In this document: positions 1 through 55,893 of the stretch, piece after piece
How the letters are laid out: each line of letters starts with the position of its first letter
How positions within the stretch are numbered: the first letter of the stretch is position 1
Assembly: GCA_902604065.1 (NCBI GenBank)
Contig: CACKXF010000001.1
Location: forward strand, 2,552 to 66,551
Direction of reading: 5' to 3'
Length of the DNA: 64,000 nucleotides
DNA from: an uncultured Pelagibacteraceae bacterium
Lineage (GTDB): Bacteria > Pseudomonadota > Alphaproteobacteria > Pelagibacterales > Pelagibacteraceae
Translations under genes and position numbers: made by a program
The notes under the pieces: generated by a model
Told to the model about the DNA's origin: nothing
Seen by the model: the letters and a program-made list of their open reading frames with translations, nothing else
Databases searched by the model: none

Positions 1-1027
1 CAATTATTAAACTTGAGATCGCATTTATTAATGTATCTATAGTACTTAAGGTTAAAGACATCGCTAATACTAAAATTGCGATTACTATTAATGAACTTTT
101 ATCTTTGAGTATTAAATCGAAAAAAGCTAGATCAGGAATTACTTTTGAATTTAAAGAATAAGATATAAGACCTGAATAGCCCATCCAAAATACTATTAAA
201 AAAATAATTGCAGATGAATAGATTAAACTGGTTTTTAATATAGAATTATTTTTAGCTGAGAAAACTCTTTGCCAGTTTCCTTGATGGAATAAATTTGTTG
301 CAGCAACTGCTATAAAAAAAGTTAATCCTGCTGTATAGTTTGGTAAATAATTTTTATCAATTAAGTTAGGTGAGTTTTTTTTAATTATTTCATGACTTGG
401 TAAATCTAAATTTTTCAATATCAATAAAAAAGACATTAAAATTATTACTACGATAAAACTAAATTGATATTTATCGGTAATAATTGAAAGTTTAAAACCC
501 CCTCTCAATATATAGAGTAAGCAAATTATCAAAGTTCCGCCTGCTGTTAACCATAGAGGTACTTGAGATATAAAATTTAACAAAGAAGCTATTGCTGTGA
601 CTTCAGCTATTAAAAATATTGTTAAGTAAAATAATATTAAAATTAGACTTATCTTTAAAATCCCGATGCCAAATCTTTTTTTTATAAATTCGGTTAATGT
701 CAGACCCTTTGGAAACTCTTTTCTTATTTTAGGTCCAAAATTATATAAAAAGAACATTGGAGCTGCCGTGCCTAAAGAATATCCAATAACAGCACCTATT
801 CCTCCCCAAGTTGCTGCAGAAGCTGGGCCAAAAAGGATCCAAGCACCAAGTGCTGATGCTGTTAAACTTGCTGTTAATGAAAATGTATCTTCATCCCTAT
901 CTCCAACAATGTAGTTTTTGTTATTAGATATTTTTTTTGAGTTTAAATAACCTAATCCAATAAAAAATAAGCCTATTAAAATAGTAACTGATAATGTTGT
1001 TTGTGAAGATAAGTATGTTTTTTCCAT
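1..1027 (-). CDS. thiV: Sodium:solute symporter, ThiV-like thiamin-pyrimidine transporter (5' part, runs off the window)
   Basis: Identical to the 5' part of 38269..39720. ATG at 1027, directly below a TPP-like aptamer. Confidence 0.75.
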   Translation of the reverse strand, partial: MEKTYLSSQTTLSVTILIGLFFIGLGYLNSKKISNNKNYIVGDRDEDTFSLTASLTASALGAWILFGPASAATWGGIGAVIGYSLGTAAPMFFLYNFGPKIRKEFPKGLTLTEFIKKRFGIGILKISLILILFYLTIFLIAEVTAIASLLNFISQVPLWLTAGGTLIICLLYILRGGFKLSIITDKYQFSFIVVIILMSFLLILKNLDLPSHEIIKKNSPNLIDKNYLPNYTAGLTFFIAVAATNLFHQGNWQRVFSAKNNSILKTSLIYSSAIIFLIVFWMGYSGLISYSLNSKVIPDLAFFDLILKDKSSLIVIAILVLAMSLTLSTIDTLINAISSLII

Positions 1028-1028
1028 A

Positions 1029-1091
1029 TTTCCCTTACTGAATTACCGGTCAGGTTCTTCGGGTATAATCTCAGTCTTTTAGACACCCCGT
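1029..1091 (-). ncRNA. TPP riboswitch-like aptamer (variant)
   Basis: Minus strand reads CGGGGUGUCUAAAAGACUGAGAUUAUACCCGAAGAACCUGACCGGUAAUUCAGUAAGGGAAAU-AUG. It has P2 GGG/CCC, a P3 GUCU/AGAC hairpin, and the CUGAGA, AUACCC, ACCUGA, UAAU and AGGGAA hallmarks. Confidence 0.9.
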
Positions 1092-1097
1092 TTTTTC

Positions 1098-1127
1098 TTT
1101 ATACTCTTATTTTAGGTAATAAGTCAA
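1098..1127 (-). promoter_or_regulatory. Putative sigma70 promoter for riboswitch-thiV, embedded in the 3' end of umuC
   Basis: TTGACT (1127-1122), N18, TATAAA (1103-1098). Predicted start ~1091 coincides with the 5' end of the aptamer. Confidence 0.6.
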
Positions 1128-2382
1128 ATGAAGCTGTATCTATCTTTGAAGAGTGTTCCCTTCTCATTTTCCAACCTTTGCTTAAGCCAGCTTGAGCTAT
1201 GCTTATCGCGTATCTTCCATACTTTGTATTTGTATAATCTATAGCTTTCATTAATTTTTTAGATTTGTTCTCTAAAAGTGGAGTTAAAAGATTTTGATCG
1301 TTTTGATTAGCATCCTTCAAGCCTGACAAGATTATACCTGCCTTTTGGTATGAATATCCATATTTATATATATCAGTTAAGGCTTTAATAGCATTTTTTA
1401 TTAATTCTATACTATTACTAGATGGAATTGCTAAGTCTATTGTTTTTGAATTAGAATAATATTTTTTATTCTTATCAAATGGACTGGTCCTAATAAATAC
1501 GGTTATTGTTTTTGCAATTTGATCATCTGCTCTAATTTTTTCCGCTGCATTCAAACAATGTGTAATAACTGATTCTTCCAACTCATTTATATCTTTTACT
1601 TTTCTACCAAAAGATCTTGAAACACAACAATTCTTTCTTTTTTCCTGATCTATCTGTAAATCAATACACGGTATCCCTCTTAATTCCATTGCTGTTTTTG
1701 CACCTAAAACATTTGTTCCTTTTTTTACCCATGTATTTGAAACATTTTTTAAATCATAAGCATTACTGATATTATTTTTATGATAAAATTTAGATAATTG
1801 TTTTCCTACACCCCAGACATCTTCGATAGGAAATTTTTTTAATTTTTCATCAATATTTTCATTTAGATATATTACTCCTGCTTTTTCTTTTTTTGCTATA
1901 TGATTTGCAACTTTGCTTAAAGTTTTTGTACAAGCTATACCTACGCTTGTCGGTATGCCTGTCCATTTAAGCACTCTTGATCTTATCTCACTCCCGTAAT
2001 CTTCCACACCTTTTTCATCCATAAAAGATAAGTCAATAAAAGCTTCATCAATTGAATAAATTTCGACTTTTGGTGAAAAAGTTTTTAAAACTTTCATTAC
2101 TCTTCTCGATATATCTCCGTACAACGCATAATTGGATGAATATACTTCTACTTTATTTCTTTTAACTAATTCCTTAACTTTGAAGTAAGGTTCTCCCATT
2201 TTAATACCAATTTCTTTTGCTTCTTTTGACCTAGATATTACACAACCGTCGTTATTAGATAAAACAACTACGGCTTTTTTTTGTATTTTTGGATTAAAAA
2301 GTCTTTCGCATGAAACATAAAAAGAATTACAGTCTACTAAAGCTATTCTACTTTTTTTAGTTATGTACTTTATGGATGACAT
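1099..2382 (-). CDS. umuC: Y-family DNA polymerase V subunit UmuC
   Basis: Motifs ALVDCNSFYVSCE, VVLSNNDGC, SSNYALYGD, YSIDEAF and C-terminal WKMRRE. Follows umuD. Confidence 0.93.
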   Translation of the reverse strand: MSSIKYITKKSRIALVDCNSFYVSCERLFNPKIQKKAVVVLSNNDGCVISRSKEAKEIGIKMGEPYFKVKELVKRNKVEVYSSNYALYGDISRRVMKVLKTFSPKVEIYSIDEAFIDLSFMDEKGVEDYGSEIRSRVLKWTGIPTSVGIACTKTLSKVANHIAKKEKAGVIYLNENIDEKLKKFPIEDVWGVGKQLSKFYHKNNISNAYDLKNVSNTWVKKGTNVLGAKTAMELRGIPCIDLQIDQEKRKNCCVSRSFGRKVKDINELEESVITHCLNAAEKIRADDQIAKTITVFIRTSPFDKNKKYYSNSKTIDLAIPSSNSIELIKNAIKALTDIYKYGYSYQKAGIILSGLKDANQNDQNLLTPLLENKSKKLMKAIDYTNTKYGRYAISIAQAGLSKGWKMRREHSSKIDTASFDLLPKIRV

Positions 2383-2755
2383 AAGTTACTACCCCCCAAA
2401 TAATTATTTCTTGATCTTTTGCTAAAGGAATTCTGTCTGATGTTTTTTTTGATCCAGACGTTAAAAATGTTTCACCCTTTTCTTTTAAAATTGTTTTTAC
2501 GACTAATTCATCGTTAACATTGGCTATGACAGTTGAGAGATTTTTGGGATTGATGCTTCTGTCCACTATTAATAAATCACCATCATAGATTCCTACACTA
2601 TTCATTGATTTTCCCTGAACCCTAATTATAAAAGTTGCTGGTGAATTTTTTATTAGATAATTATTTAAATCTACATCGTCTTCAATGTAATCTGTTGCAG
2701 GAGAAGGAAAACCAGCTCCTACTTTATGTATATAATAAGGTATTTTAAGCTCCAT
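2357..2755 (-). CDS. umuD: UmuD (S24 autopeptidase)
   Basis: AGFPSPA cleavage site, GKSM catalytic Ser and VVK catalytic Lys. Confidence 0.93.
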   Translation of the reverse strand: MELKIPYYIHKVGAGFPSPATDYIEDDVDLNNYLIKNSPATFIIRVQGKSMNSVGIYDGDLLIVDRSINPKNLSTVIANVNDELVVKTILKEKGETFLTSGSKKTSDRIPLAKDQEIIIWGVVTYVIHKVHN

Positions 2756-2759
2756 AAAT

Positions 2760-2774
2760 GTTCCTATTTTGTTC
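2760..2774. promoter_or_regulatory. Alphaproteobacterial LexA (SOS) box
   Basis: GTTC-CTATTTT-GTTC (GTTC-N7-GTTC), 4 nt upstream of the umuD ATG. Confidence 0.88.
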
Positions 2775-2775
2775 T

Positions 2776-2804
2776 TTTATAGAAAATAATATAGCTTTAG
2801 TCAA
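2776..2804 (-). promoter_or_regulatory. sigma70 promoter of umuDC
   Basis: TTGACT (2804-2799), N17, TATAAA (2781-2776). The predicted start site falls inside the LexA box. Confidence 0.75.
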
Positions 2805-2862
2805 CTGTTATATGGGGCAATATGCGTTTGGAATTAAAATAAGTTAAAAGTTAAAAACTTAG

Positions 2863-3630
2863 ATGAAAAAAATTTTAATATTTCTAGCATTATTATTAAC
2901 AACTTCTATTGCGCAAGCTGATTCAAAGCTACAAACAATCAAAAAAAATGGCGAACTAAGAGTTGGTACGACTGGAGATTGGGATCCAATGTCAATGAAA
3001 GATCCAGCTACAAATAAATATAAAGGATTTGATATTGATGTGATGAGAGAACTAGCTAAAGATATGGGTGTAAAAGTAAAGTTTGTTCCAGCAGAGTGGA
3101 AAACAATAGTTGCTGGAATTACAGCTGACAGATACGATATTTCAACAAGTGTAACCAAAACGCCTAAAAGAGCTGAAGTAGCAGGTTTCACAGAAACGTA
3201 TTTTAAATATGGAACAGTTCCATTAGTACTTAAAAAAAATTTAAAAAAATTTCCTACTTGGGACTCATTAAACTCAAAAAAAGTTAAAATAGCTACAACT
3301 TTAGGAACATCTCAGGAAGAAAAAGCAAAAGAATTTTTTCCAAAATCTAAACTTAGATCAATAGAGGCTCCAGCACGAGACTATCAAGAGGTTTTAGCTG
3401 GTAGAGCAGACGGAAATATTACCAGCTCACTGGAAGCAAATAAATTAATCATCAAATATCCTCAATTAGCCATAGTGCCAGATGGCGGAAAGAACCCAGC
3501 ATTTTTAGCAATGATGGTGCCAAAAGGAGACAAGGCTTGGAATGATTACGTGAGTAGTTGGATTAAAAGAAAACAAACTTCTGGGTTTTTCATGACTTTA
3601 GAAGCTAAATACAATCTTAAAAGCTTATAA
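2863..3630 (+). CDS. Family 3 solute-binding protein, cyclohexadienyl dehydratase (PheC)-like clade
   Basis: Signal peptide (AQA-D), LRVGTTGDW motif and GFDIDV. Confidence 0.85.
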
Positions 3631-3671
3631 TTTTAGTTTTAATAACTTCCATTAATTAATATAGTCAATCT

Positions 3672-4406
3672 GTGAAGATTACTAAATATTTTTTATTATT
3701 GTTTGTTCTTCAAGGGTGTAGCTCAAACTATGAATGGGGTTGGTATATATTAAGTCCAGATAATGTTGAGGGACTTACCAATCTAAAATTTCTTATAAGT
3801 GGAATAACTACTACAATTTATATTTCAGTAATTTCGATTATTTTAGCTATGATAATAGGATTAATTATTGCTTTGCCCTCATTGTCAAAAAATAAATTTT
3901 TAACATATTTGAATATTACATACGTAGAAATAGTACGAGCTATTCCCTTATTGGTTTTAATATTATGGATTTACTACGGCTTACCAATAATGTTAGGTGT
4001 AAGCTTCTCCCCTTTTGTCTCTGGTATTATCGCTTTAACAATAAGTGAAAGTGCTTTTCAAGCTGAAATTTTTAGAGCTGGTATTAATTCTATAAGCAAA
4101 GGTCAGCATGAGGTTTCGGAGTCGCTTGGAATGAGTTTTTGGAAAAAAATGAGATTAGTAATTTTACCACAAGCTATAAAAGTAGTATTACCAGCTATGG
4201 GTAACCAATTTGTATATGTTTTAAAGATGTCTTCACTTGTATCAATTATTGGAATAGCTGATTTAACAAGAAAAGCAAATGAACTTGTTACTACTACTTA
4301 TAGGCCACTAGAAATTTATACTTTTTTAATTTTAGAATATTTGGTTTTGATTTTAATAGTCTCTTATTTTGTAAGGAAATTGGAAAACAAATTAGAATAT
4401 AAGTAA
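3672..4406 (+). CDS. Polar amino acid ABC transporter permease with N-terminal lipobox
   Basis: YVEIVRAIPLLV, AEIFRAGI and an EAA-like loop. GTG start, LQGC lipobox at residues 13-16. Confidence 0.88.
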   Translation: MKITKYFLLLFVLQGCSSNYEWGWYILSPDNVEGLTNLKFLISGITTTIYISVISIILAMIIGLIIALPSLSKNKFLTYLNITYVEIVRAIPLLVLILWIYYGLPIMLGVSFSPFVSGIIALTISESAFQAEIFRAGINSISKGQHEVSESLGMSFWKKMRLVILPQAIKVVLPAMGNQFVYVLKMSSLVSIIGIADLTRKANELVTTTYRPLEIYTFLILEYLVLILIVSYFVRKLENKLEYK

Positions 4407-5753
4407 TTTTTTAAAAGATATTTTAAAGACCCGCATTAAAAAAAACGGTACAAAAGTTAAAACAATTAGTCCCATCATCCAATTTGTTATCATTATAGTG
4501 TAAAAAATATCTTGATAACCTCCATTCTTCATATTGATTACATACCATAAAGACAAAAACGGTATTAAGGTTAGTCTAAGTATAGTCATATAAAGACTAT
4601 ATATTGGTCTTTTAAGCGCTTGAAACAAAGCAGAAGTTATAAAAAATACTGGATAAACTGGGCCGATAAAAGCAGCAACTTGTAGATAAAGCGCTCCATT
4701 TTGAATTACTTGAGGATCATTAGTAAATAAAGATATTATTAGCTCCGATGTTAAGTAAATAATAATACCTGCTAAAACCATAAAGCCTGAACCAAACATT
4801 AAAGCTTTTCCGTACACTTCCTTAACTCTAAAGTGCATTTTGGCACCAAAATTTTGCCCAGCTATAGCGAGCACAGCAGTATTTAATCCTATAACTGGCA
4901 ACAATAATACTTGTTCTATTCTGACCGCTGTACCATAACCTGCCGTTGCCAACTCACCAAATTGACCAACGAAATAGAAAATATTAAATACTCCAAACAT
5001 TATCATTAACATAGTAAACATTATTGGAACTGACTGTTTAAAAAGTATGCTAATGTAATCAAGCTTTGGTTTAAAACATTCTATATATAAGTACTTTTTT
5101 AATTTACAACAGTAAACTTTATTAGCTAAATATATTAAACCTACACACTGAGCTACTAATGTGGCTATAGCTAAACCAGCAATTCCAAATGCTGGTATAA
5201 ACCCATAACCAAAAATAAATAAAGGATTAAGAAATATATTTAAGAAGAAAGTAAATATTAAAACATTTCTATAACTTTTTGTATCACCTTGTGCATTCAA
5301 AGTTCCATTTAAAGATAATTGAATTAATACAATTATGGCACCAAAAAATATTATATCTAAGTATTCACGTGTTAAAATTATACTTTGTTCGGTAGAACCC
5401 ATAATTCTTAAAAGCTCATCTGAAAAATTTAAACCAAACAAAGTTACAAAGATTGAGATAACAATTGCCAGTACTATAGACTGGGCAACGTACATAGATG
5501 CTTTTCTGTCTTCTTTAGCACCTATAGAGTTACTTATTAAAGCTGTTGTACCAGCACCAATACCAACGGCCACAGCTATTGCTATAAAATAAATTGGCCA
5601 AGATTTTGCTATTGCTGCTAGTGCTTCTGGAGAAATTTTTCCTGCGAAATAAGTATCAACTAGATTATAAAAAGTTTGAAAAAGTGATCCAGTGCTTGCA
5701 GGTATGGTTACTTTTCTTAAAAGTTGCCAAATTGAACCTCTTGTTAAATCCAT
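4392..5753 (-). CDS. MATE family efflux transporter
   Basis: 453 aa hydrophobic protein with YNLVDT, GDTK and GQNFGAK MATE motifs. Confidence 0.92.
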   Translation of the reverse strand: MDLTRGSIWQLLRKVTIPASTGSLFQTFYNLVDTYFAGKISPEALAAIAKSWPIYFIAIAVAVGIGAGTTALISNSIGAKEDRKASMYVAQSIVLAIVISIFVTLFGLNFSDELLRIMGSTEQSIILTREYLDIIFFGAIIVLIQLSLNGTLNAQGDTKSYRNVLIFTFFLNIFLNPLFIFGYGFIPAFGIAGLAIATLVAQCVGLIYLANKVYCCKLKKYLYIECFKPKLDYISILFKQSVPIMFTMLMIMFGVFNIFYFVGQFGELATAGYGTAVRIEQVLLLPVIGLNTAVLAIAGQNFGAKMHFRVKEVYGKALMFGSGFMVLAGIIIYLTSELIISLFTNDPQVIQNGALYLQVAAFIGPVYPVFFITSALFQALKRPIYSLYMTILRLTLIPFLSLWYVINMKNGGYQDIFYTIMITNWMMGLIVLTFVPFFLMRVFKISFKKLLIF

Positions 5754-5755
5754 AT

Positions 5756-6661
5756 TTAATATTCCTTTTGAAACTTATGCTTCTTTCCCGCTTTTTTAGC
5801 AAGATTAATTTGATTTTGCCTCATTCGAAATCTTGATTTTTGCAAACTTGATAGTGTGTCATAACACCTTTCACAAGAAACACCCTCTTCATATTTTTTT
5901 GATCTCTTATCTTTTGTTGATATAGGTTTCCGACACCCTCCGCAAATTGAATAAGTTCCCTGTTTTAATTTATGCTTTAAAGAAACTCTATTATCGAAAA
6001 CAAAACATTCTCCTTTCCACAAGCTATCTTTTTTTTTAGTTTTATTGAGATAATTAATTATTCCACCTTTTAATTGAAATACGTTTTTAAAACCTTTTTT
6101 TTTTAAAAATATTGATGCCTTTTCACATCTAATACCTCCAGTGCAGAACATTGCAACAGGTTTGGTTTTTTCAATTTTACTTAAAAATTTTGGAAAATCA
6201 CGAAAATTTTGTATATTTGGATTCATTGCTTTCTTAAAAGTACCAACATTATATTCGAAGGGTTTTCTTACATCAATCACAAGAGTTTTTTTTTTTGTAA
6301 TCAGTTTGTTCCAAGATTTTCCAGACAAATACCTATTATGTCTTTTGCTTTCACCATTAATTTTTAACCCAAGTGGCACTACTTCTTTTTTTATTTTTAC
6401 TTTTGCTTTGTGAAATGGTTGAAAACGACTAGTAGAAATATTATTGCTATCAAAGTCTGTGAATTTAAAACTTTTTTTTAGTAATTTTAAAATTTTAGAA
6501 ATATCTTTACTATTACCTGCAAGAGCTCCATTAATACCTTCTGATGATATTATTATTGATCCTCTAATACTAGTGTTTGATATTTCGTTTTCAAGATAAG
6601 TTTTATATTTTTTTAAGGAATTAATCTTTTTAAACTTGTAAAATCCAGATATAGTAAACAT
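5756..6661 (-). CDS. trhO: tRNA uridine(34) hydroxylase TrhO (rhodanese, YceA family)
   Basis: FYKF, EGING, DVRKPFEYNVGTF, MFCTGGIRCEKAS and GECFVFDNRV. Confidence 0.9.
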   Translation of the reverse strand: MFTISGFYKFKKINSLKKYKTYLENEISNTSIRGSIIISSEGINGALAGNSKDISKILKLLKKSFKFTDFDSNNISTSRFQPFHKAKVKIKKEVVPLGLKINGESKRHNRYLSGKSWNKLITKKKTLVIDVRKPFEYNVGTFKKAMNPNIQNFRDFPKFLSKIEKTKPVAMFCTGGIRCEKASIFLKKKGFKNVFQLKGGIINYLNKTKKKDSLWKGECFVFDNRVSLKHKLKQGTYSICGGCRKPISTKDKRSKKYEEGVSCERCYDTLSSLQKSRFRMRQNQINLAKKAGKKHKFQKEY

Positions 6662-7314
6662 TAATTTTTAATACAAATAGTTAATCCATCACCAACAGGA
6701 ATTATGTTTTTTGTAACTCTTTTATCTTGTTTAACATGGTTATTAAAATCCCTAATAATATTTGTAAATTTATCGTTGTTTGCATTGTCCGCAACTTCGC
6801 CATGCCATAATACGTTATCAATAATTATCAGGCCTTTTTTATCTATTAAATCTATACTAGTTTCGTAATAATTTAGGTAATTTTCTTTATCAGCATCAAT
6901 AAAAATTAAATCGAAAGATTTTTTTGTGTCTTTTAATTCTTTTAAACTTTCTACAGCTGGTTTAATAATTTGTTTAATTCTTTTTTCATTGGCTTTAGCA
7001 TAAAAGGATTTAGCCTTACTACTAAATTCATAATTTTTATCTAAACTAATTAAAATTCCATCAAGAGGAAGTGCCATCGCCATGGATAAAGCGCTAAAAC
7101 CAGTGAAACTACCAATCTCTAAAATTTTTTTAACGTTTGAAACTTTTATTAATGTTTGTAGAAAATGCGCTTGCGATATAGATATTTGTAATCTTTGTTG
7201 ATCTCCTAAACTTTTATTATGCTGAATAATTTCATTCTGAACATCTGATAGATTTTCTGAATGATTAATAATATATTGTTCAAGATTGTCAGTTAAATCT
7301 AATTTTTTAGGCAT
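6661..7314 (-). CDS. SAM-dependent O-methyltransferase family 3 (CCoAOMT/TrmR-like)
   Basis: LEIGSFTGFS, FIDADKENY, IDNVLWHG and GDGL. Confidence 0.88.
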   Translation of the reverse strand: MPKKLDLTDNLEQYIINHSENLSDVQNEIIQHNKSLGDQQRLQISISQAHFLQTLIKVSNVKKILEIGSFTGFSALSMAMALPLDGILISLDKNYEFSSKAKSFYAKANEKRIKQIIKPAVESLKELKDTKKSFDLIFIDADKENYLNYYETSIDLIDKKGLIIIDNVLWHGEVADNANNDKFTNIIRDFNNHVKQDKRVTKNIIPVGDGLTICIKN

Positions 7315-7316
7315 AA

Positions 7317-8786
7317 TTAGCCTTTTAAAAGTTTTTTTAAAATTTCGTTTGTTAATTGCGGGTTGGCTTTCCCGCCTGATTGTTTCATAACCTGTCCAAC
7401 AAAAAAACCAAATAATTTTTCTTTACCAGACTTATATTGATCAACTTTATCTTTATTCTTGGTTAATATTTCATTGATTATTTTTTCTAACTCTTTGGGA
7501 TCACTTTGTTGTTTCATCCCTTTTGATTCTATTATTTTTTTTGGATTTTCTCCGCTCTCAACCATTATTTCAAAAACTTCTTTTGCTATTCTGCCAGAAA
7601 TTTCTCCAGATTTTATTGATCGAACTAGTTCAGCAAAGTTTTTAGCAGAGATAGGTGAGTTAGATATATTCAGTCCTTTATCATTTAACATTGCGAATAA
7701 GTCACCCATCATCCATGTGGCTGCAAGTTTTTTATCAGATAATTTTGCCACCTCCTCATAATAGTCTGAGATATCTTTTTCAGAAACCAGAACATTTGCT
7801 TCATATGAATTAAGTCCGTAATCGTTAATAAATCTCTCTTTTTTATTATCGGGTAACTCAGGTAAAGTTTTTTTTAATTCATCGATTAATTTTTGTTCAA
7901 TTTTAAGAGGTAAAAGATCGGGGTCTGGAAAATATCTATAATCATGGGCGTCTTCTTTTGATCTCATTGATCTTGTTTCATTTTTCTTTGTATCGAAAAG
8001 TCTTGTCTCTTGGTCAATCTTTTTTCCGTCATCTAACATTTCAACTTGTCTATTTGATTCATATTCTATCGCCATTTGCATAAATTTAATTGAATTTACA
8101 TTTTTTATCTCACATCTTGTTCCAAGCTTTTTATCTCCGATTTTTCTTACTGATACATTTACATCTGCTCTTAATGAACCCTCTTGCATATTACCATCGC
8201 AGGTTCCTAGATATCTCATTATGGTTCTGAGTTTTTTTATATATACATTAACTTCATCTGGAGATCGAAGATCTGGTTTACTTACTATTTCCATTAGCGC
8301 AATTCCAGAACGGTTTAAGTCTACATAAGTATTTGTGGGATCCATGTCGTGAATGCTTTTACCCGCATCTTGTTCTAAATGAAGTCTTTCAATACCAATT
8401 TCTTTTGAACCATATGGCATATCCAATAAAACCTTTCCTTCACCAACGATTGGATTTTTATATTGTGAAATTTGATAACCTTGTGGAAGATCTGCGTAAA
8501 AATAATTTTTTCTATCAAATACTGAATTATTATTAATCTTAGCATTTAGTCCTAAACCAGTCCTAATAGCTTGGTTTATGCACTCTTTATTTATAACTGG
8601 CAGCATTCCAGGAAAAGCAGAGTCTATAAGACTTACTTGGCTGTTAGGTTCAGCTCCAAATTTAGTTGCAGATCCAGAGAAAAGTTTTGAATTTGAAGAT
8701 ACTTGAGCATGAACTTCCAAACCAATTATTACCTCATACTTATTTTTCTTTCCTTCTATATAATAGTCAAATTTATCTTTGCTCAT
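7317..8786 (-). CDS. gatB: Asp/Glu-tRNA amidotransferase subunit B
   Basis: [20 protein letters not shown] and YRYFPDPDL. Start placed at the ATGA overlap with gatA (ORF extends to 8795). Confidence 0.97.
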
Positions 8787-10240: not shown

Positions 10241-10527
10241 TATTCAATAACCTTTGGAACAACGAAAAATTCTTCGTTATTTTTTGGTGAATTTTTAAGA
10301 ATCTTTTCTCTTATTTTTCCATCATCTATTTTATCTTCTCTTGACCTGAGCGGTGTGTTTAAAATTGAAGATAATGGTTCTACTTTATCAGTATTTAACT
10401 CATTTAATTGCTCTATAAATTTGAATATAGATGTTAAATCTTTTGCTAATAAGTCAGATTTTTTTGAATCTATAGAAATTCTAGCTAACTTACTAATATG
10501 TTTAATTTTATCTTTATCTATGGACAT
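10240..10527 (-). CDS. gatC: Amidotransferase subunit C
   Basis: ISKLARI and FFVVPKVIE. Upstream of gatA. Confidence 0.95.
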
Positions 10528-10581
10528 CTGTGATTTATGTTATTTATATAGGAAATTAATATCATAAAATATAATAAATAA

Positions 10582-11046: not shown

Positions 11047-11072
11047 TAAGATAGCACAAAAGGCCTATAGAG

Positions 11073-41497: not shown

Positions 41498-41555
41498 CTG
41501 TTATATGGGGCAATATGCGTTTGGAATTAAAATAAGTTAAAAGTTAAAAACTTAG

Positions 41556-42323: not shown

Positions 42324-42364
42324 TTTTAGTTTTAATAACTTCCATTAATTAATATAGTCAATCT

Positions 42365-44446: not shown

Positions 44447-44448
44447 AT

Positions 44449-46007: not shown

Positions 46008-46009
46008 AA

Positions 46010-47479: not shown

Positions 47480-48933
47480 AACCACCAATTCTTTATTTCA
47501 TTTTTAAAATTACAATTTTTTTCAAAAGCATAAGCCACATTCAATATATTTTGCTCATCTAAAGTCTTTCCAATTAACTGCAACCCTAGTGGATAGCCCT
47601 TTTTATCTAAGCCTGCCGGTACCGATATTGCAGGTAAACCAGCTAAATTCACTGGTACAGTAAATATATCATTGAGATACATAGAAATAGGGTCATTAGT
47701 CTTTTCACCAATTTTAAATGCAGAACTTGGTGTTGAAGGTGTCAAAATAGCATCTACCTTACCAAAATTTTCATCAAAATCTTTTTTAATAAGCTGTCTA
47801 ACCTTTTGAGCTTTAAGATAATAGGCATCATAATATCCTGATGACAAAACGTAAGTACCAATTAAGATTCTTCTCTTTACCTCATCTCCAAATCCTTCGG
47901 ATCTTGTATTCTCGTACATTTCAATTAAATCATTTCCTTTTGATGATCTATAACCATATTTTACTCCATCATATCTAGCTAAATTTGAAGAAGCTTCAGC
48001 TGGTGCAACTATATAATATGTTGGCAATGCATACTTTGTGTGAGGGAGCGAGATGTCAATTATGTCAGCGCCTAATTCTTTTAAAATATTTTTTCCCTTG
48101 TTCCATAATTCGTCAATTTCTTTTGGCATATTTTCAACTCTATATTCCTTAGGTATGCCAATTTTGAGACCTTTAATATCTGTTTTCAAATTTTTTGAAT
48201 AATTTTCTTTTTTCTTTTCTATAGATGTGGAGTCTTTTTTATCAAAACCTGCCATAGCCTCTAACATGATCGAACAATCTTTAACAGATTTAGTCATTGG
48301 ACCAGCTTGGTCAAGGGATGAGGCAAAGGCAACAATTCCCCAACGTGAACATAATCCATAAGTTGGTTTTAGTCCGACTGTTCCAGTGAAAGAGGCTGGC
48401 TGTCTTATTGAGCCGCCTGTATCGGTTCCAATTGTTGCAGGAGTTAAATTTGCTGCAAGTGCAGATGCAGAGCCCCCGGATGAGCCCCCAGGAACAGTAT
48501 TCTCAGCTATTGGATTTATAACATTTCCAAAATAACTTGTTTCATTTGACGATCCCATTGCATATTCATCGCAATTCAATTTGCCAAGTAAGATAGCACC
48601 CTCTTTCCATAAATTTTCTGTAATGGTGGACTCATACTTTGGTATAAAATTTTTCAACATTTTACTACCAGCTGTAGTTTTAAATCCATCAGTACAAAAA
48701 AGATCTTTTACAGCCAACGGGATTCCTGGAAGTAAAGAGTTTATGTTCGGCTTTTTGTCGAATTCTTTTGCTTTCTGAATAGCATTTTCAAAACAGGTAG
48801 TTATATACGAGTTGAGTTTTTTGCTTTTATTTACTTTATCAATATAAAGATTAGTAAGCTCTTCGGATTTAATCTCCTTTTTTTTTATTAACTCTATAAT
48901 TTCTGATAGGTCTTTTTTTATAATTTCTGACAT
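47476..48933 (-). CDS. gatA: GatA, copy 2
   Basis: Identical translation to copy 1. Confidence 0.97.
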
Positions 48934-49220
48934 TATTCAATAACCTTTGGAACAACGAAAAATTCTTCGTTATTTTTTGGTGAATTTTTAAGAATCTTTT
49001 CTCTTATTTTTCCATCATCTATTTTATCTTCTCTTGACCTGAGCGGTGTGTTTAAAATTGAAGATAATGGTTCTACTTTATCAGTATTTAACTCATTTAA
49101 TTGCTCTATAAATTTGAATATAGATGTTAAATCTTTTGCTAATAAGTCAGATTTTTTTGAATCTATAGAAATTCTAGCTAACTTACTAATATGTTTAATT
49201 TTATCTTTATCTATGGACAT
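48933..49220 (-). CDS. gatC: GatC, copy 2
   Basis: Identical translation to copy 1. Confidence 0.95.
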
Positions 49221-49274
49221 CTGTGATTTATGTTATTTATATAGGAAATTAATATCATAAAATATAATAAATAA

Positions 49275-49739
49275 ATGTTGGATATTGAGGAATTTAAGAA
49301 AAAACTAGACAAAAAATCAAGGCTTATAGGCATTGATCCTGGAAAAAAGCGAATAGGTATAGCTATTTCAGATGAAAATAAAATAGTCGCTACTCCATAT
49401 ACAACTATAATTAAAAAAGATTATTCTAGTTTTTTGGCTGAAATAAAGAAAATAGTCCACGAAAATACTGTTAAAGGTATTGTGGTTGGAAATCCCATAA
49501 ATATGGATGGGTCATCTGGATCCTCATCTCAATCTGCAAAAGATTTAGCATTAAACTTATCAAAAGATGTTACACAAAATATCGTTTTGTGGGATGAAAG
49601 ACTATCAAGCGAGGGGGCATTCAATTTATCTAGCAATTTAGATATAAATGTAAGTAAAAAAGTACAAAAATTAGACGAAAATGCGGCTCAATTCATATTA
49701 CAAGGGGCTTTAGATTATTTAAATAAAAATAATACTTGA
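49275..49739 (+). CDS. ruvX: YqgF/RuvX, copy 2
   Basis: Identical translation to copy 1. Confidence 0.93.
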   Translation: MLDIEEFKKKLDKKSRLIGIDPGKKRIGIAISDENKIVATPYTTIIKKDYSSFLAEIKKIVHENTVKGIVVGNPINMDGSSGSSSQSAKDLALNLSKDVTQNIVLWDERLSSEGAFNLSSNLDINVSKKVQKLDENAAQFILQGALDYLNKNNT

Positions 49740-49765
49740 TAAGATAGCACAAAAGGCCTATAGAG

Positions 49766-50719
49766 TTGATTTTAATGGCAGTAATAAAAAAGTCCTCAGC
49801 TATTAAAAACTCACCCAAACATCTTTTAGGTATTCAAAATTTATCAATATTAGAAGCTAAAAAAATTTTAAACGAGGCAAAAACTTTTATTAAATTGAAT
49901 AGAAGCAATACCAAGAAGTTGAATACTTTAAGAGGAAAAACCCAAATCAATTTATTTTTTGAACCGTCAACTAGAACACAAAGTTCGTTTGACCTGGCTG
50001 GCAAAAGATTAGGTGCTGATGTTATGACTATGAATATGAGTAACTCCGCTTTAAAAAAAGGTGAAACTCTTATTGATACGGCTATGACATTAAATGCAAT
50101 GCATCCGGATTTGATAGTTATTCGTCATCAAGACTCTGGTGCACCAAATCTACTTTCACAAAAAGTTAATTGTGCGGTAATAAATGCTGGGGATGGTAGA
50201 AGAGAACACCCTACTCAGGCCTTGCTTGATGCTTTAACAATAATAAGCCGCAAAGGTAATATTGAAGGACTTAAGATAGCAATCTGTGGTGACATACTCC
50301 ATTCTAGAGTCGCTAGATCAAATATCTATTTAATGAATATGCTTGGAGCTGAAGTAAATGTGATTGCCCCTAAAACTCTAATGCCAAAATCAATTGAAAG
50401 ATTAGGTGTTAAAGCTTTTACTAATATGAAAAAAGGCTTAGATGGATGTGACATTGTTATGATGTTGAGATTGCAAAATGAAAGAATGCAAGGATCATTT
50501 CTTCCTTCTAAAAGAGAATACTATGAGTACTTTGGTTTAACTCCAGAAAAATTAAAGTTTGCCAACAAAAATGCTTTGATCATGCATCCTGGTCCAATGA
50601 ATAGAGGAGTAGAAATAGATACTAAATTAGCTGATGATATTAATGTAAGTCTGGTGAAAGAACAGGTTGAACTTGGAGTAGCTGTTAGAATGGCATGTTT
50701 AAAATTATATTGTAAATGA
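49766..50719 (+). CDS. pyrB: PyrB, copy 2
   Basis: Identical translation to copy 1. Confidence 0.97.
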
Positions 50720-52002
50720 ATGAAAAAATTATAATAAACGCTAGAATTGTTGATCCATCTCAAAAATTAGATGAAATGGGTTCAGTGATTATTGATAAAA
50801 ATGGAAAAGTAAAAGCTATTGGGAAAAAAGTAACTAAAAAAGACTGTCCAAATGCTGAGGTAATTGATGTTAAAAAAAATCTAATAATACCTGGTATCGT
50901 TGATATGAAGGCATTTGTTGGTGAACCAGGATTTGAATACAAAGAAAATTTTAGAACTTTAAGTCAAGCAGCTCTTGCAGGTGGTGTAACTTCAATTGTT
51001 ACGATGCCTAACACAAAACCTATTATAGATAATGTCTCCATGGTTGATTTTATAATGAGACGTGGAAGAGATAAATCAAAAATTAATCTCTTTCCATGTG
51101 CTTCACTCACAAAACAAATGGAAGGTAAGCTGATGACAGAATTTGGTTTATTGTCAGCAAAAGGAATTATTGGATTTAGTGATGTAAACAAAACAGTTCA
51201 AAATACCGAGACTATGGCAAGAATAATGGACTATGCATCAGATATTGGTGTTTTGATTATGCAGCATGCTGAAGATTACGAATTATCGAAAAATAGATGT
51301 ATAAATGAAGGTGAAGTATCTAATAGACTTGGTTTGAGTGGAATATCACCAATAGCTGAAAAAATTATTATAGAAAGAGATCTCTCTTTATTAAGTGAAT
51401 TCCCATGTAGGTACCATATAAATCAAATTTCATCTCGGAATTCTTTAGATGTTATTAAAAAAAATAAATCAAATGGTAAAAAATTTAGTGTTGGGGTTTC
51501 AATAAATAATATTTCCCTTAATGAAAATGACATTGGGGACTTTAAAACATTTTTAAAACTATCTCCTCCTCTTAGATTGGAAGATGATAGAAAAGCACTA
51601 GTTGAGGGAATAAAAAACGGACTTATTGATGTTATAGTTTCAGATCATACTCCTGAGGATGAGGAAAGTAAAAGACTTCCTTTTGCTCAAGCAGCCACTG
51701 GTGCTATAGGTGTAGAAACTCTTCTACCGCTAGCATTAGAACTATATCATAATGAATCTTTGTCACTTAATAAGATAATTGAATGTTTAACAATTAATCC
51801 ATCTAATGTTCTTAAGATTAACAAAGGCACTTTAAAAATGGGGTCCGATGCAGATATTTGTGTTATTGATTTAAATAAACCATGGGTGGTCAAAGCAGGA
51901 AATTTAAAATCTAAGTCTAAAAATACCGCTATTGAGGATAAAAGATTACAGGGTAAAGTTTTGATGACCTTTTTGAAGGGTGAACCTGTATTTAAAACTT
52001 GA
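50716..52002 (+). CDS. pyrC: PyrC'-like protein, copy 2
   Basis: Identical translation to copy 1. Confidence 0.88.
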
Positions 52003-52580
52003 AAATGGAAATTATAATTTTATCTTTATGTTCATATCTTATAGGGTCAATTCCATTTGGTTTAATATTTACTAAATTTTTTTTAAAAAAAGATGTAAGA
52101 AAAATTGGATCCGGAAACATAGGTGCTACTAATGTACTTCGGACTGGTAATAAAATTTTAGCTTTATTAACTTTAATTTTTGATATTGCTAAAGGATATT
52201 TAGTAGTTAAAATTTCTTTTATTTATTTTCCTGACTTAATATATTTGACAGGACTAATTTGTTTCATTGGTCATATTTTTCCTGTCTGGTTAAAATTTAA
52301 AGGTGGTAAAGGAGTAGCAGTTTATGTTGGTATAATTTTAGCTTTATCGTTTAAATTAGCTTTAATTTTTGGAGCCACTTGGTTAATTGTTTTATTTTTA
52401 TTTAGATATTCTTCTCTTTCATCTATCTTCGCATCATTGTCGTTAATAATTTATAATTTATTTTTTAATGATAATTTTCAAAATTTTTTTTTAATTCTAT
52501 TTTTCTTGATTATTATTTATACCCACAAACAAAATATTTTGAGAATTAAAGACAAAAGGGAAACTAAAATAAAGTTTTAA
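51999..52580 (+). CDS. plsY: PlsY, copy 2
   Basis: Identical translation to copy 1. Confidence 0.95.
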   Translation: MKMEIIILSLCSYLIGSIPFGLIFTKFFLKKDVRKIGSGNIGATNVLRTGNKILALLTLIFDIAKGYLVVKISFIYFPDLIYLTGLICFIGHIFPVWLKFKGGKGVAVYVGIILALSFKLALIFGATWLIVLFLFRYSSLSSIFASLSLIIYNLFFNDNFQNFFLILFFLIIIYTHKQNILRIKDKRETKIKF

Positions 52581-52652
52581 TTTATTAGGTTTTTTAAGTT
52601 AAATTTAAATAAATTTGACTTTTATTCCAAATTTTGAAATTAAGTCTTTAAT

Positions 52653-55226
52653 ATGAATTTAGTTATAGTTGAAAGTCCAGCAAAAGCTAAAACGATAAAC
52701 AAATATCTAGGTTCAGACTACTTAGTTTTAGCCAGTTACGGCCACATTAGAGATTTGCCATCAAAGAATGGCTCGGTTGATCCTGATAAAAATTTTGAAA
52801 TGCAATGGGAATTAGATTCTTTTTCAAAAAAATATTTAAAAGAAATTACAGATGCAGCAAAAGAAAGTGATAAAATAATATTAGCAACCGATCCAGATCG
52901 TGAAGGGGAAGCAATAGCGTGGCATGTAAAACAAGTTTTAGATGATAAAAAACTTTTAAAAGGAAAAAAACTGGAGAGAGTTGTTTTTAACGAAATTACT
53001 AAAAACGCTGTGCTTAAAGGTATTAATAATCCCAGAGAAATTGAAGAGACATTAGTAAAAGCATATCTTGCTAGAAGAGCTTTAGATTATCTTGTAGGAT
53101 TTAATATATCGCCAATTTTGTGGACTAAACTTCCAGGCTCTAAATCAGCAGGAAGAGTTCAATCTGTTGCTCTAAAATTAATAACTCAAAGAGAACATGA
53201 AATTGAGTCTTTTAAACCAGAAGAGTACTGGACGTTAAATGCTAATTTTAAAAATTTAGAAAATAAAAATGTTTTTTCAAAACTTAATATTCTCGATGGA
53301 AAAAAAATCGAAAGATTTAGTTTTAAAAATAAAAGTGATATTAATTTAGCAACTGAAAAAATTAATAAACAAGAATATTTCATTAAAGATGTAAACTCAA
53401 AAGTTGTAAAAAGGAATCCCTCAGGTCCTTTCACTACTTCAACACTTCAACAAACATCATCTGGAAAGTATGGTTTTGGCGCTTCAAGAACTATGCAAAT
53501 AGCACAAAGATTATATCAGGGAATTGAAATAGATGGAGAAACTGTAGGACTTATTACCTACATGAGGACTGATGGAACGAATATCTCAAATGAAGCTGTC
53601 AAAGAATTCAGATCTTTTGTGGAGAATGATTTGGGAAAAAATTATTTACCAGATAGCCCAAATAATTATAAAGGAAAAAAAGCTAAAAATGCTCAAGAAG
53701 CTCACGAAGCTATCAGACCAACTGATATTAAAAAAAAACCTGATGAAATGAAGAAATATCTAAGCACAGATCAATTTAAGCTATATGATTTAATTTGGTC
53801 TAGAGCTCTAGCATCACAGATGAAGCCGGCTGAGTTTGATAGAAACACAATTCAAATTAATTCAAAAGATAATAGTATTCAATTTACCTCTACTGGTTCG
53901 GTTATAAAATTTGACGGTTTTTTAAAAATTTATTCATTCCAAAACGAGGATGAAGAAAAAAATATGTTGCCAGAAGTTAAAGTAGGTGAAAAGATAAATC
54001 TAGGAGAATTAATTGATGAACAACATTTCACATCTCCACCTCCAAGATATTCTGAAGCAAGTTTAGTAAAGAAAATGGAAGAGCTGGGTATTGGTAGACC
54101 TTCTACTTATGCAAGTATTATATCTGTTTTGTCAACTAGAAATTACACTGAGTTATTAAATAAAAGATTTCATCCTACTGATAGGGGTAAATTGTTATCA
54201 GCTTTTTTGGAAAAACTCTTTTCAAAATATGTTGATTATAATTTTACTGCAGATTTAGAAAATCAACTTGATGAAATAACAAGTGGTAAAACTAATTACT
54301 TAAATGTTTTAGAGACATTTTGGAAAAGTTTTTATAATGACGTTGGCTCAGTCAAAGACATTAGGACTAGAGAAGTATTAGATTTGTTAAATGAAAGTCT
54401 TGGGGATTTAATATTTGAAAAGAATGAAAAAGATCAAATTGATAGAAAGTGTAAAATTTGTGCTAATGGTATTTTAAGTCTTAAAAATAGCTTTAGGGGT
54501 GGTGCTTTCATTGGTTGTTCAAACTATCCAGAATGTAAATTTACAAGGCCTCTCTCAAAAACGAAGGCATCCCAACAATCATTTTTAGCGGAACCAAAAC
54601 TGATAGGAAAAAATGATGAAGGGAAAGAAATATTTTTGAAAAATGGAAGATTTGGTCCTTATTTACAATATGAGTTAATAAAAGAAATTGAAGAAAAACC
54701 TATTAAAAAGAAACGTGGCAAAAAGAAAAAAGACGACAATTTAAAAAATGTTTCAATTCCAAAAGGTTTGTCCTTAAAAGATGTAGATTTAGAAAAAGCA
54801 AAATATTTGTGCTCATTACCAAAAAATATAGGTAAACACCCTGAGCTTAATGATGATATAACAATCAACATTGGTAGATTTGGTCCATATTTAAAATGTT
54901 CTAATAAATCTGCTCGATTGGAAACTATTGAAGATTTATTTTCAATCGGACTAAATCGAGCAATTACTTTAATTTCGGAAGCAAAGCCAGGAAGAGTCTC
55001 TTCATCTGAAATCAAGAATATAGGGCAGCATCCTGAAGACAAGAAACCGGTTAGAGTTATGAAAGGTCAGTATGGTCCATACATAAAATATAAGTCTCTA
55101 AATGCAACTATACCAGAAGATAAAGACCCAAGTGAAATTACAATGGAGGAAGCGTTAATATTGATAGAAAAAAGAAAAGAATATGATAAAAGTAAAAAAG
55201 GAAAAAAAAAAGGTATTAAAAAATGA
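52653..55226 (+). CDS. topA: Topoisomerase I, copy 2
   Basis: Identical translation to copy 1. Confidence 0.97.
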   Translation: MNLVIVESPAKAKTINKYLGSDYLVLASYGHIRDLPSKNGSVDPDKNFEMQWELDSFSKKYLKEITDAAKESDKIILATDPDREGEAIAWHVKQVLDDKKLLKGKKLERVVFNEITKNAVLKGINNPREIEETLVKAYLARRALDYLVGFNISPILWTKLPGSKSAGRVQSVALKLITQREHEIESFKPEEYWTLNANFKNLENKNVFSKLNILDGKKIERFSFKNKSDINLATEKINKQEYFIKDVNSKVVKRNPSGPFTTSTLQQTSSGKYGFGASRTMQIAQRLYQGIEIDGETVGLITYMRTDGTNISNEAVKEFRSFVENDLGKNYLPDSPNNYKGKKAKNAQEAHEAIRPTDIKKKPDEMKKYLSTDQFKLYDLIWSRALASQMKPAEFDRNTIQINSKDNSIQFTSTGSVIKFDGFLKIYSFQNEDEEKNMLPEVKVGEKINLGELIDEQHFTSPPPRYSEASLVKKMEELGIGRPSTYASIISVLSTRNYTELLNKRFHPTDRGKLLSAFLEKLFSKYVDYNFTADLENQLDEITSGKTNYLNVLETFWKSFYNDVGSVKDIRTREVLDLLNESLGDLIFEKNEKDQIDRKCKICANGILSLKNSFRGGAFIGCSNYPECKFTRPLSKTKASQQSFLAEPKLIGKNDEGKEIFLKNGRFGPYLQYELIKEIEEKPIKKKRGKKKKDDNLKNVSIPKGLSLKDVDLEKAKYLCSLPKNIGKHPELNDDITINIGRFGPYLKCSNKSARLETIEDLFSIGLNRAITLISEAKPGRVSSSEIKNIGQHPEDKKPVRVMKGQYGPYIKYKSLNATIPEDKDPSEITMEEALILIEKRKEYDKSKKGKKKGIKK

Positions 55227-55435
55227 AAAAATTTATTTGTGTGTTAATTTTTTTAACATATCAAAGCCCTATTTTTGCAGATGAAAATAAAGGTTGTGAT
55301 GGAATATTAGCTAAACTTAAAAAAGAGTGTAATATTGTTGGTAAAAGTTTAGACAAAATGAAAGATTTTAGCAGTAAAAATAAAACAATTGATCAGTCTC
55401 TTGAAAATATTAAAGATAAACTTAAAAAAAAATGA
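55223..55435 (+). CDS. Small hypothetical exported protein, copy 2
   Basis: Identical translation to copy 1. Confidence 0.7.
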   Translation: MKKFICVLIFLTYQSPIFADENKGCDGILAKLKKECNIVGKSLDKMKDFSSKNKTIDQSLENIKDKLKKK

Positions 55436-55893
55436 GTGTTGATGAAAATTTAAAAAAATTAAAAATTGATCTACCTGATCCACCTGCGCCAGTCGGCGCT
55501 TATACAGCGTTTAAAAAAATAGGGAAATTATTATTTATTTCGGGACAAATCTCTTTAGACTCAAATGGAGTATTAATTAAAGGAAAAGTTGGATCTGAAA
55601 TCAACTTAGAAGTTGGTAAAAAAGCTGCAGAAACATGTTGTATTAACATTGTGGCACAATTAAAAAAAGCATGTAATGGTAACTTAGATAAAGTAAATTC
55701 ATGTGTCCAACTAGCTGGATATGTAAATTCTTCAGATAATTTCATTGATCAACCAAAAGTAATTAATGGAGCTTCAGAATTAATGACTAAAATATTTGGA
55801 GATATTGGAATACACACAAGATCAGCAGTTAGTTCTAACTCTCTCCCTTTAGGAGCGGCTGTCGAAATAGTTTCTATATTTGAAATTAATTAA
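55432..55893 (+). CDS. ridA: RidA/YjgF family protein (intact, 153 aa)
   Basis: PVGAY, ISGQI, NGASEL, HTRSAV and LPLGAAVEI. Confidence 0.9.
   Translation: MSVDENLKKLKIDLPDPPAPVGAYTAFKKIGKLLFISGQISLDSNGVLIKGKVGSEINLEVGKKAAETCCINIVAQLKKACNGNLDKVNSCVQLAGYVNSSDNFIDQPKVINGASELMTKIFGDIGIHTRSAVSSNSLPLGAAVEIVSIFEIN

Follow-up and report, generated by a model that had tools for sequence, protein, structure and literature searches.

Background

Template switching produces the DUP-TRP/INV-DUP structures found in human genomes and, as the Roth laboratory has reportedly described, tandem inversion duplications in bacteria. Complex rearrangements of this kind are very rare per cell in vivo.

Comparable joins are also formed in the test tube. 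In MDA products there is about one chimera per 22 kb, 85% of the chimeras are inverted and their junctions show complementarity of 2-21 nt (PMC1855051), with the inverted ones mostly joining sequences within 10 kb of each other and with complementarity present in ~30% of the joins whose partners are >10 kb apart (Lasken and Stockwell 2007, PMC1855051). At a frequency of one per 22 kb of product, chimeras are to be expected in single-cell data.

The stretch analysed here, hereafter the window, comprises 64,000 nucleotides (G000:C1:2552-66551) and includes two copies of a repeat, R, a segment X between them, and segments Q and Z on either side of the second copy, so that the order on the contig is R, X and then Q-R-Z. 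The direct-inverted-direct order and two inversion-type joins with microhomology are shared with the tandem inversion duplications and the DUP-TRP/INV-DUP structures. Unlike in either of these, where the inverted middle copies a part of the duplicated region, X derives from another locus at a distance of 86-115 kb, and both types were rejected as a description of this locus since X is not a copy of the flanking duplicated segment. The traversal of a loop in a de Bruijn graph also gives near-identical copies, one of which is cut by a contig end, and a repeat bracketing exactly the cycle-closing sequence with a single exit. It differs from the present case in that chimeric joins would here take the place of a true genomic repeat in closing the cycle, and in that one base differs between the copies. 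As in the MDA inverted chimeras (PMC1855051), non-adjacent segments are joined, the second being inverted, at a complementarity falling within the range of 2-21 nt (5-10 and 6 nt here), and genes are cut at arbitrary points in places devoid of mobile-element features. Unlike in most of those chimeras, the partners lie ~100 kb and not <10 kb apart, and the amplification is in our case presumed; unlike in the reported ones, the two joins form a cycle, written out as a 19.6-kb repeat.

Segments of the contig and their native arrangement

An exact repeat of at least 17 kb had been described in the first-pass annotation and was recovered as such: positions 1-17067 and 38694-55760 align with 0 mismatches, and the identity ends precisely at 17067/55760. 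Self-comparison of the contig extends the repeat to 19,618 bp (C1:1-19618 versus C1:38694-58311) with a period of 38,693 bp, copy 1 opening at the first base of the contig (C1:1) and copy 2 at window position 36143, not 38694. It is the sole repeat of at least 200 bp across the 872-kb assembly. The absence of differences between the copies, claimed earlier, holds within the window but not for the whole contig, where one mismatch was found. It is located at contig position 228, in the part of copy 1 outside the window, which has A (codon AAA, as in the same-species metagenome contigs) where copy 2 has T (Table 1). Two versions of R are thus present in the reads, which counts against a chimeric origin of the repeat; a real two-copy state would also account for this difference. 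The only tRNA gene of the window, tRNA-Ser(GCU) at 37262-37353, sits within R, 1.1 kb inside.

Table 1 Features of the window (positions are those of the window)
Feature	Position	Strand	Description
R copy 1, window part	1..17067		Identical to 38694-55760; part of C1:1 to C1:19618. Genes (Pfam/NCBIfam): SSS/ThiV-like transporter, umuC, umuD, ABC binding protein, permease, MatE, UPF0176/TrhO-like, O-methyltransferase, gatB, gatA, gatC, ruvX, pyrB, amidohydrolase, plsY, topA, truncated ridA
Truncated RidA-family gene	16739..17067	+	First 109 codons, then glf-derived read-through with a stop at 17110
Junction 1 microhomology	17058..17067		AAAGT (17063-17067), exact in native ridA and native glf
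X	17068..30007		12.9-kb piece of a distant locus, apparently inverted relative to its present neighbours. Genes (Pfam): broken glf, galE, trkA, ntrX, ntrY, ispDF, pgpA, cinA, lipA, ftsB, eno, kdsA, broken pyrG
Truncated glf (UDP-galactopyranose mutase)	17068..17846	+	Lacks ~115 N-terminal codons including the FAD-binding fold
Truncated pyrG	29488..30013	-	C-terminal glutaminase part only, ~175 of 540 codons
Q	30008..36142		Single-copy, natively upstream of R. Genes: broken acpS, pdxJ, pyrE, spoT/relA, folK, smpB, dapA, start of slt
Junction 2 microhomology	30008..30013		AAATTA (minus-strand reading), exact in native acpS and native pyrG
Truncated acpS	30008..30116	-	First 36 codons, then out-of-frame pyrG sequence with a stop at 29979-29981
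R copy 2	36143..55760		In native context: Q upstream, Z downstream
Single difference between the copies	36370	+	T, giving TAA, which ends the 749-codon slt prematurely at codon 454
Intact RidA-family gene	55432..55893	+	153 aa; straddles the native R-Z boundary
Z	55761..64000		Native continuation past R, from UDP-glucose dehydrogenase onward (Pfam)

Relatives and same-species metagenome contigs have Q-R-Z as the native order. Q is colinear with R and Z in G011:C5, G012:C2 and the metagenome contig L121/L135, Z follows R colinearly in G007:C6, G011:C5, G012:C2 and G002:C6, and the metagenome contig L087 is 99.2% identical over the R-Z boundary, where it has the native join. X is present in a single copy in the assembly, has no sequence in common with Q-R and matches G011:C1:249024-260250 as well as equivalent regions on other contigs in relatives. 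In the genomes that carry X and Q-R on one contig (one same-genus genome and four closed family genomes: G217, G242, G138, G213 and G032), X lies 86-115 kb from Q-R in the opposite orientation, and conserved synteny suggests that X is inverted in the present genome. Since X is natively opposite to Q-R, both joins are of the inversion type. GC and AT skew were uninformative as a test of the orientation of X, as the signal tracks the coding strand.

The two joins

Both gene-breaking jumps described in the first-pass annotation were located. The one from ridA into the middle of glf falls at 17067/17068, where the RidA-family gene is cut and glf is entered internally. The ORF at 16739-17110 encodes 123 aa versus 153 aa in the intact copy at 55432-55893, and TIGR00004 covers residues 14-80 in the former versus 14-149 in the latter. 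The glf remnant matches profile positions 100/125-374 of 378 in TIGR00031, with the full-length same-species Glf (P0241) having 375 aa. When the chimeric stretch was aligned with both native genes, ridA taken from copy 2 and glf from L134, a 97.6% identical same-species metagenome contig, 9/10 positions agreed at the join (AACCAAAAGT versus AACCGAAAGT).

The other jump, from the middle of pyrG into the 5' end of acpS, lies at 30008-30013 of the window, with both genes cut; the BLAST end points of the native acpS (L121) and pyrG (L129-L131) metagenome contigs against the window are C1:32559 and C1:32564. The pyrG remnant covers only profile positions ~366-526 of TIGR00337 and there is no second pyrG match in the assembly, while native PyrG, encoded on the metagenome contig L129, consists of 540 aa. 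Native AcpS consists of 128 aa and its gene is followed by lepB-rnc-recO in the metagenome contigs L121, L122 and L124.

Four genes are therefore cut (ridA, glf, pyrG and acpS), of which pyrG and acpS are normally essential. No IS, integrase or rRNA is found at either join, as had been noted from the sequence, the genes there being housekeeping ones according to Pfam and NCBIfam; nor is there a transposase, terminal repeats, a target-site duplication or a tRNA attachment site among the hallmarks of mobile elements and site-specific recombination looked for at the joins. A search for repeats, palindromes and tRNAs at both joins and where copy 2 begins gave only AT-rich chance matches. The microhomology of 5 nt exact (9/10) at one join and 6 nt at the other is far under any assembler k-mer, so the joins exist in the sequenced molecules.

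Search for the joins in other genomes and metagenomes

Both joins are absent among 20 relatives and ~400 family genomes, and no match spans junction 2 among the 400 family genomes. The 32-mer over junction 1 has 0 matches in the searched metagenome contigs, metagenomes being blind to a rearrangement private to one cell. The 22-mer from the end of R was found in nine metagenome contigs, all of which (9/9) continue with the native ridA sequence, one of them with 99.2% identity to the window's contig. The same-species metagenome contigs, which were reached through near-identical proteins, contain glf, pyrG, acpS and ridA intact in native settings and are native at all four break points. No record in public assemblies was found for the ridA fusion ORF, KdsA, GalE or PdxJ as exact proteins.

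State of the draft assembly

The assembly has a completeness of ~75%, its dropouts occurring in blocks, and its estimated contamination is 3.1% versus 0-1% for most relatives, a value for which the duplicated marker genes in R may account. Intact copies of pyrG and glf, which it had been suggested to seek outside the window, are found nowhere in the assembly. The native flanks missing from it are the N-terminus and the upstream gene at glf, the N-terminus-secG-tpiA and ~42 kb at pyrG, and the C-terminus-lepB-rnc and 9.5 kb at acpS; the start of coverage seems to coincide exactly with the joins. No contig-end overlaps marking alternative graph branches were found at the break points, which fits trimmed contig ends.

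The closest relatives are single amplified genomes named 'AG-...NODE_n', amplified with phi29 and assembled with SPAdes, and the present genome is likely to be of amplified single-cell origin as well. The AG pipeline consists of WGA-X, SPAdes with --sc and a 2000-bp contig cut-off (PMC5519541), and the shortest contig of the present assembly is 2098 bp long.

Clean colinearity with the relative G011 was seen in the other 32 contigs, and sharp breaks occur in C1 alone. The suggestion that the assembly is chimeric throughout was rejected by this whole-assembly synteny, so an argument from an assembly full of chimeras is unusable; that the assembly is not generally chimeric counts against a chimera in C1 as well.

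Origin of the repeat

The repeat is truly in the contig, yet it is most likely an artefact. It is quite reasonable to suggest, with considerable confidence, that two chimeras formed in the amplification gave the assembly graph a closed loop, which the assembler traversed once. The caveat of the first-pass annotation, according to which a chimera of MDA or single-cell origin, or else a misassembly, would be at least as likely as a real amplification, is favoured by the evidence, and we infer an in vitro origin of both joins and take the second copy of R for a graph-path artefact.

The source DNA would have come from a single SAR11-type cell, amplified by a phi29-type polymerase (MDA/WGA-X), on whose actual chromosome there is most likely one Q-R-Z and, ~100 kb off on the opposite strand, one X. 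A strand copying R may have quit its template within ridA, re-primed at the 5-10-nt match within glf on the other strand and copied the 12.9 kb of X, with a second switch in pyrG, at the 6-nt match, leading to acpS, where Q begins, and from there through Q, R and Z; it is equally possible that the two joins come from two separate strands. The chimeric molecules would then have locally dominated the amplified DNA, so that glf, pyrG and acpS were left without their native continuations in the assembly. The two joins would make a cycle in the graph, leading from Q-R into X and from X into Q-R again, whose one exit is to Z, and an assembler circuiting it once would write R twice. The start of copy 1 at the contig end and one difference in 19,618 bp are what is expected from a graph path used twice, and if one path was traversed twice, the exact identity of the copies is no evidence for a physical duplication. 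Counting against the chimeras are the distance of ~100 kb between the partners of the joins and the closure of the cycle, which needs one strand switching twice, or coincidence.

A real event in one cell, namely a ~25.7-kb duplication from the broken acpS to the broken ridA with an inverted copy of the 12.9-kb glf-pyrG segment between the two copies, is considered unlikely. Replication or repair would have switched template twice at microhomologies (in an MMBIR/FoSTeS-like manner, or by way of a remodelled tandem inversion duplication), and acpS, pyrG, glf and X would be present, intact and at their native loci, in the unassembled 25% of the genome. Replicative template switching in cells also gives the direct-inverted-direct layout with 5-6 nt of microhomology, one site of R has two alleles in the data, and in an assembly only 75% complete intact copies could be hidden. 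Such hiding, however, needs three coincident dropouts reaching up to the break points (the X locus with both flanks and the left flank of Q), and the joins are absent from the searched family genomes, junction 1 also from the searched metagenome contigs; the same-species contigs are native at all break points. A selective rationale is not evident, and for any one cell events of such complexity are very rare, in contrast to an amplification chimera about every 22 kb of product. One of the two models proposed at first, an acpS-ridA duplication with a 12.9-kb templated insertion, had the geometry right and agrees with the microhomology at both joins but missed the inversion of the insert; nothing points to the cell over the amplification reaction as the place of the template switches. 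The other, a direct 38.7-kb tandem duplication of a native block with an internal acpS-pyrG deletion, explains the exact repeat with its period of 38,693 bp but not two novel joins in place of one, and it is refuted by the orientation of X opposite to Q-R in G217, G242, G138, G213 and G032, since a direct duplication plus a deletion is unable to give R-X-Q from such an arrangement; it can hardly be maintained at all. A simple tandem duplication was rejected likewise, there being two novel joins and a 38.7-kb unit contiguous in no relative.

That the software, be it the assembler or a subsequent contig-merging step, misjoined unrelated contigs at a common sequence, with no chimeric molecule involved, is very unlikely: the repeat is exact and copy 1 begins at a contig end, as such an error would have it, but the 5-10 and 6 nt at the joins are too short for k-mer or overlap joining, neither join has a longer repeat and the other contigs are free of misjoins. 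A mixed well with two cells or strains that are close relatives of each other, one having a rearranged genome, would explain the two-allele site in R and the contamination estimate of 3.1% versus 0-1% in most relatives; this is nevertheless highly improbable, as there is one difference per 19.6 kb versus 1-2% among the same-species metagenome contigs, and the rearranged strain still requires the same improbable event. A 38.7-kb circular element or excised circle was rejected because both segments of the unit are housekeeping ones whose loci lie far apart in opposite orientation, and because the unit lacks genes for replication and recombination. A real rearrangement without duplication was rejected by inference, because the cell would lack intact pyrG and acpS.

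Significance

At face value, the contig would imply a gene amplification and a complex rearrangement in a streamlined marine genome, and it would bring into databases false paralogues (gatCAB, topA, umuDC and tRNA-Ser), false pseudogenes (ridA, glf, pyrG and acpS) and an inflated contamination estimate, errors that are averted by recognising it as a probable artefact of amplification and assembly. The combination of an exact repeat with its first copy at a contig end, inversion-type microhomology joins and native flanks absent from the assembly is a warning pattern and a practical flag for other single-cell genomes. If the event were true in vivo, the contig would be a direct snapshot of complex replicative rearrangement, taken in the streamlined genome of an uncultured organism, with a fresh 25.7-kb duplication including gatCAB, topA, umuDC, pyrBC and the ThiV-like transporter among other genes.

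Organization of contig C1

The draft assembly of the uncultured Pelagibacteraceae bacterium (G000) comprises 872 kb in 33 contigs with a G+C content of about 29%. Its contig C1 has a length of 91,950 bp, with the window covering bases 2552-66551 (positions below are those of the window unless marked C1), and shows the order R/X/Q-R-Z, where R is the repeated stretch of 19,618 bp, X is a 12.9-kb piece from glf to pyrG, Q is the single-copy stretch upstream of R and Z is the native continuation after R. The exact repeat described in the first-pass annotation was confirmed by direct comparison of the window with itself, in which 1-17067 and 38694-55760 are identical and the identity stops exactly at these ends. 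At the contig level, C1:1-19618 corresponds to C1:38694-58311, the two differing only at position 228, so copy 1 starts at the first base of C1, and copy 2 starts at window position 36143. No further repeats of at least 200 bp were detected in the whole assembly and no contig-end overlaps among its contigs. The two gene-breaking junctions noticed in the same annotation, ridA/glf (junction 1) and pyrG/acpS (junction 2), are also present and could be refined to base level.

Features of the repeat-bearing region of contig C1 in window coordinates
Feature	Position	Strand	Content
Junction 1	17067/17068		RidA-family gene cut after 109 codons; glf entered ~115 codons from its start
X	17068-30007		broken glf, galE, trkA, ntrX, ntrY, ispDF, pgpA, cinA, lipA, ftsB, eno, kdsA, broken pyrG
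Junction 2	30008-30013	minus	last ~175 pyrG codons and first 36 acpS codons, out of frame
Q	to 36142		pdxJ, pyrE, spoT, folK, smpB, dapA, slt start
R			remainder of slt, tRNA-Ser, ThiV-like transporter, umuDC, ABC transporter parts, MatE, TrhO-like gene, O-methyltransferase, gatCAB, ruvX, pyrB, amidohydrolase, plsY, topA, ridA
Unannotated ORFs in R	36799-37260 and 37424-38296

The only tRNA gene of the window, tRNA-Ser(GCU) at 37262-37353 on the minus strand, lies just past slt within R; it is therefore present twice in the contig and would count as two genes. The completeness of G000 is estimated at 75% and its contamination at 3.1%, against 0-1% for most relatives, and the duplicated single-copy genes of R (gatA, gatB, topA, pyrB, plsY and ruvX) could be the source of the contamination estimate.

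The mismatch between the copies falls in slt (35011-37260), which has 749 codons in same-species contigs. Window position 36370 in copy 2 (C1 position 38921) is a T, giving TAA at codon 454, whereas copy 1 (C1 position 228, outside the window) and the metagenome contigs have an A, giving AAA, so both versions of the site must be present in the reads. The difference could stem from a polymerase error made early in a single amplification lineage, or from two real copies of R; short reads cannot phase the site, and it is taken as neutral between the two. The TAA in copy 2 probably arose as an error during amplification or assembly and is not the mark of a pseudogene.

Native arrangement in related genomes

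In the same-genus relatives G011 (contig C5) and G012 (contig C2), a single contig carries Q, R and Z in colinear order, with X located on another. Relative G011 was rebuilt and the whole G000 draft was aligned to it: 32 of the 33 G000 contigs are colinear with G011, and the only two sharp breaks are both in C1; at the second, the alignments on either side overlap by 5 bases. Wherever X and Q share a contig, namely in same-genus G217 and the closed genomes G242, G138, G213 and G032, they are 86-115 kb apart and opposite in orientation, with R beyond Q on the same strand as Q. X is therefore inverted in C1 relative to the native chromosome, and both joins are of the inversion type. The direct 38.7-kb tandem duplication with an internal acpS-pyrG deletion, one of the models put forward in the first-pass annotation, requires a directly oriented X; it is refuted by these five genomes and was left with practically no weight.

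Contig C3 of G000 at about 6-50 kb, and C4 at 1-13 kb, show low, patchy homology to G011 with many gaps and look like hypervariable regions, probably cell-surface ones. The glf-galE end of X likewise has no counterpart at the corresponding place in the relatives. About 10 kb of G011 (between C5:89522 and C5:99848) is missing between adjacent alignment blocks at G000:C5:12766/12761, which is probably an ordinary between-species indel.

The native sequences expected beyond the joins are missing from the G000 assembly. Nothing in it matches glf positions 1-100 or the gene that precedes glf, nor the pyrG N-terminus, secG and tpiA, and the ~42 kb adjoining pyrG-secG-tpiA in G011 is unrepresented. 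X is an 11-13 kb island inside an otherwise unrepresented 87-kb stretch. The remainder of acpS, lepB, rnc and a further ~9.5 kb, as far as the start of contig C5, are likewise missing. Thus, the assembled sequence begins or ends exactly at each join.

All four break points are native in metagenome contigs of the same species with 97.6-99.2% identity to G000. The ridA gene runs on into Z in L087 (99.2% identity, 13.9 kb), the order pdxJ-acpS (128 aa)-lepB-rnc-recO is found in L121, L122, L124 and L126, tpiA-secG-pyrG (540 aa)-kdsA-eno in L129-L131, and a complete 375-aa glf followed by galE in L134. L087, L121 and L131, at 98-99% identity, come from Tara samples. A 32-mer spanning junction 1 had no matches in the metagenome contig collection, while its R-side 22-mer matched nine contigs, all nine with the native continuation. 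For junction 2, no spanning match, which would score above the half-length matches listed, was found in 20 relatives or 400 sampled family genomes (the sample took in the unpublished G238 and G088, and no claim depends on either specifically).

Over 2.6 kb, contig L131 shares 98.9% identity with the window, and L129 and L130 share just 92.5% over 4.4-4.5 kb despite encoding the same KdsA protein, which suggests mosaic or recombinant stretches in the population. In L124 (HARO18-2 scaffold_54469), positions 1685-2541 after acpS contain a 158-aa ORF with no Pfam match and a short Peptidase_S26 fragment of 77 aa, where L121 and L122 have the 245-aa lepB; a frameshift in lepB or a variant of the gene may account for this.

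Sequence of the joins

At junction 1, native ridA reads AACCAAAAGT/AATTAATGG and native glf AACCGAAAGT/TCAATGGACC, and C1 carries AACCAAAAGT/TCAATGGACC, with a microhomology of 5 nt exact, or 9/10. For junction 2, read on the minus strand, the native sequences are GAAATTA/AAAAATG in acpS and ATAAATTA/TTCAAGA in pyrG, and C1 carries GAAATTA/TTCAAGA, with 6 nt exact. Such matches are far below any assembler k-mer; the joins must therefore have been present in the sequenced molecules, and both are template-switch products, not software joins.

Origin of the arrangement

Nearly all of the closest relatives in the genome collection are single amplified genomes named [quoted passage not shown]. In the AG-xxx workflow, phi29-based multiple displacement amplification (MDA) by WGA-X is followed by assembly with SPAdes --sc --careful, 100 bp are trimmed off contig ends and contigs above 2000 bp are kept (PMC5519541). 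The smallest G000 contig has 2098 bp, and we infer that G000 is a genome of this type. In single-cell MDA, Lasken and Stockwell reported 495 chimeras in 10.9 Mb of reads, or one in about every 22 kb; they were primed by 2-21 nt of complementarity, 85% were inverted, and in about a quarter the joined segments lay more than 10 kb from each other (PMC1855051).

The R/X/Q-R-Z feature is most likely not biological, and an amplification chimera combined with loop traversal during assembly very probably accounts for it. A strand copying R may have switched to glf on the opposite strand, copied X and switched again inside pyrG to acpS; alternatively, two strands may have switched once each. Chimeric molecules formed early would dominate coverage locally, and this would account for the absence of the native flanks right up to the joins. 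In the assembly graph, the two joins would form a closed loop that leads from Q-R into X and returns to Q-R, with R to Z as the sole exit, and this path written out once would give R/X/Q-R-Z, the first R being cut by the path end. As the same graph path would serve both copies of R, their near-perfect identity would arise by construction and says nothing about recent duplication.

The amplification artefact is preferred because chimeras are common in amplified DNA and all the features would follow from one process, although it depends on amplification of the G000 DNA, which we infer, and against it stand the otherwise clean alignment of the assembly to G011 and the ~100 kb spanned by the joins, beyond typical intramolecular chimeras. 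Replicative template switching in vivo would fit the layout and the microhomology equally well, but a real duplication with an inverted insertion is improbable, as an event of this type is very rare per cell and would require three dropouts ending exactly at the break points, namely those of the native X locus together with its two flanks and of the native Q flank. There is only a slim chance of a pure software misjoin, the shared sequence at the joins (5-10 nt and 6 nt) being far shorter than assembler k-mers, and that of mixed cells is slimmer still. Read as an amplification artefact, the case is useful as a recognisable pattern.
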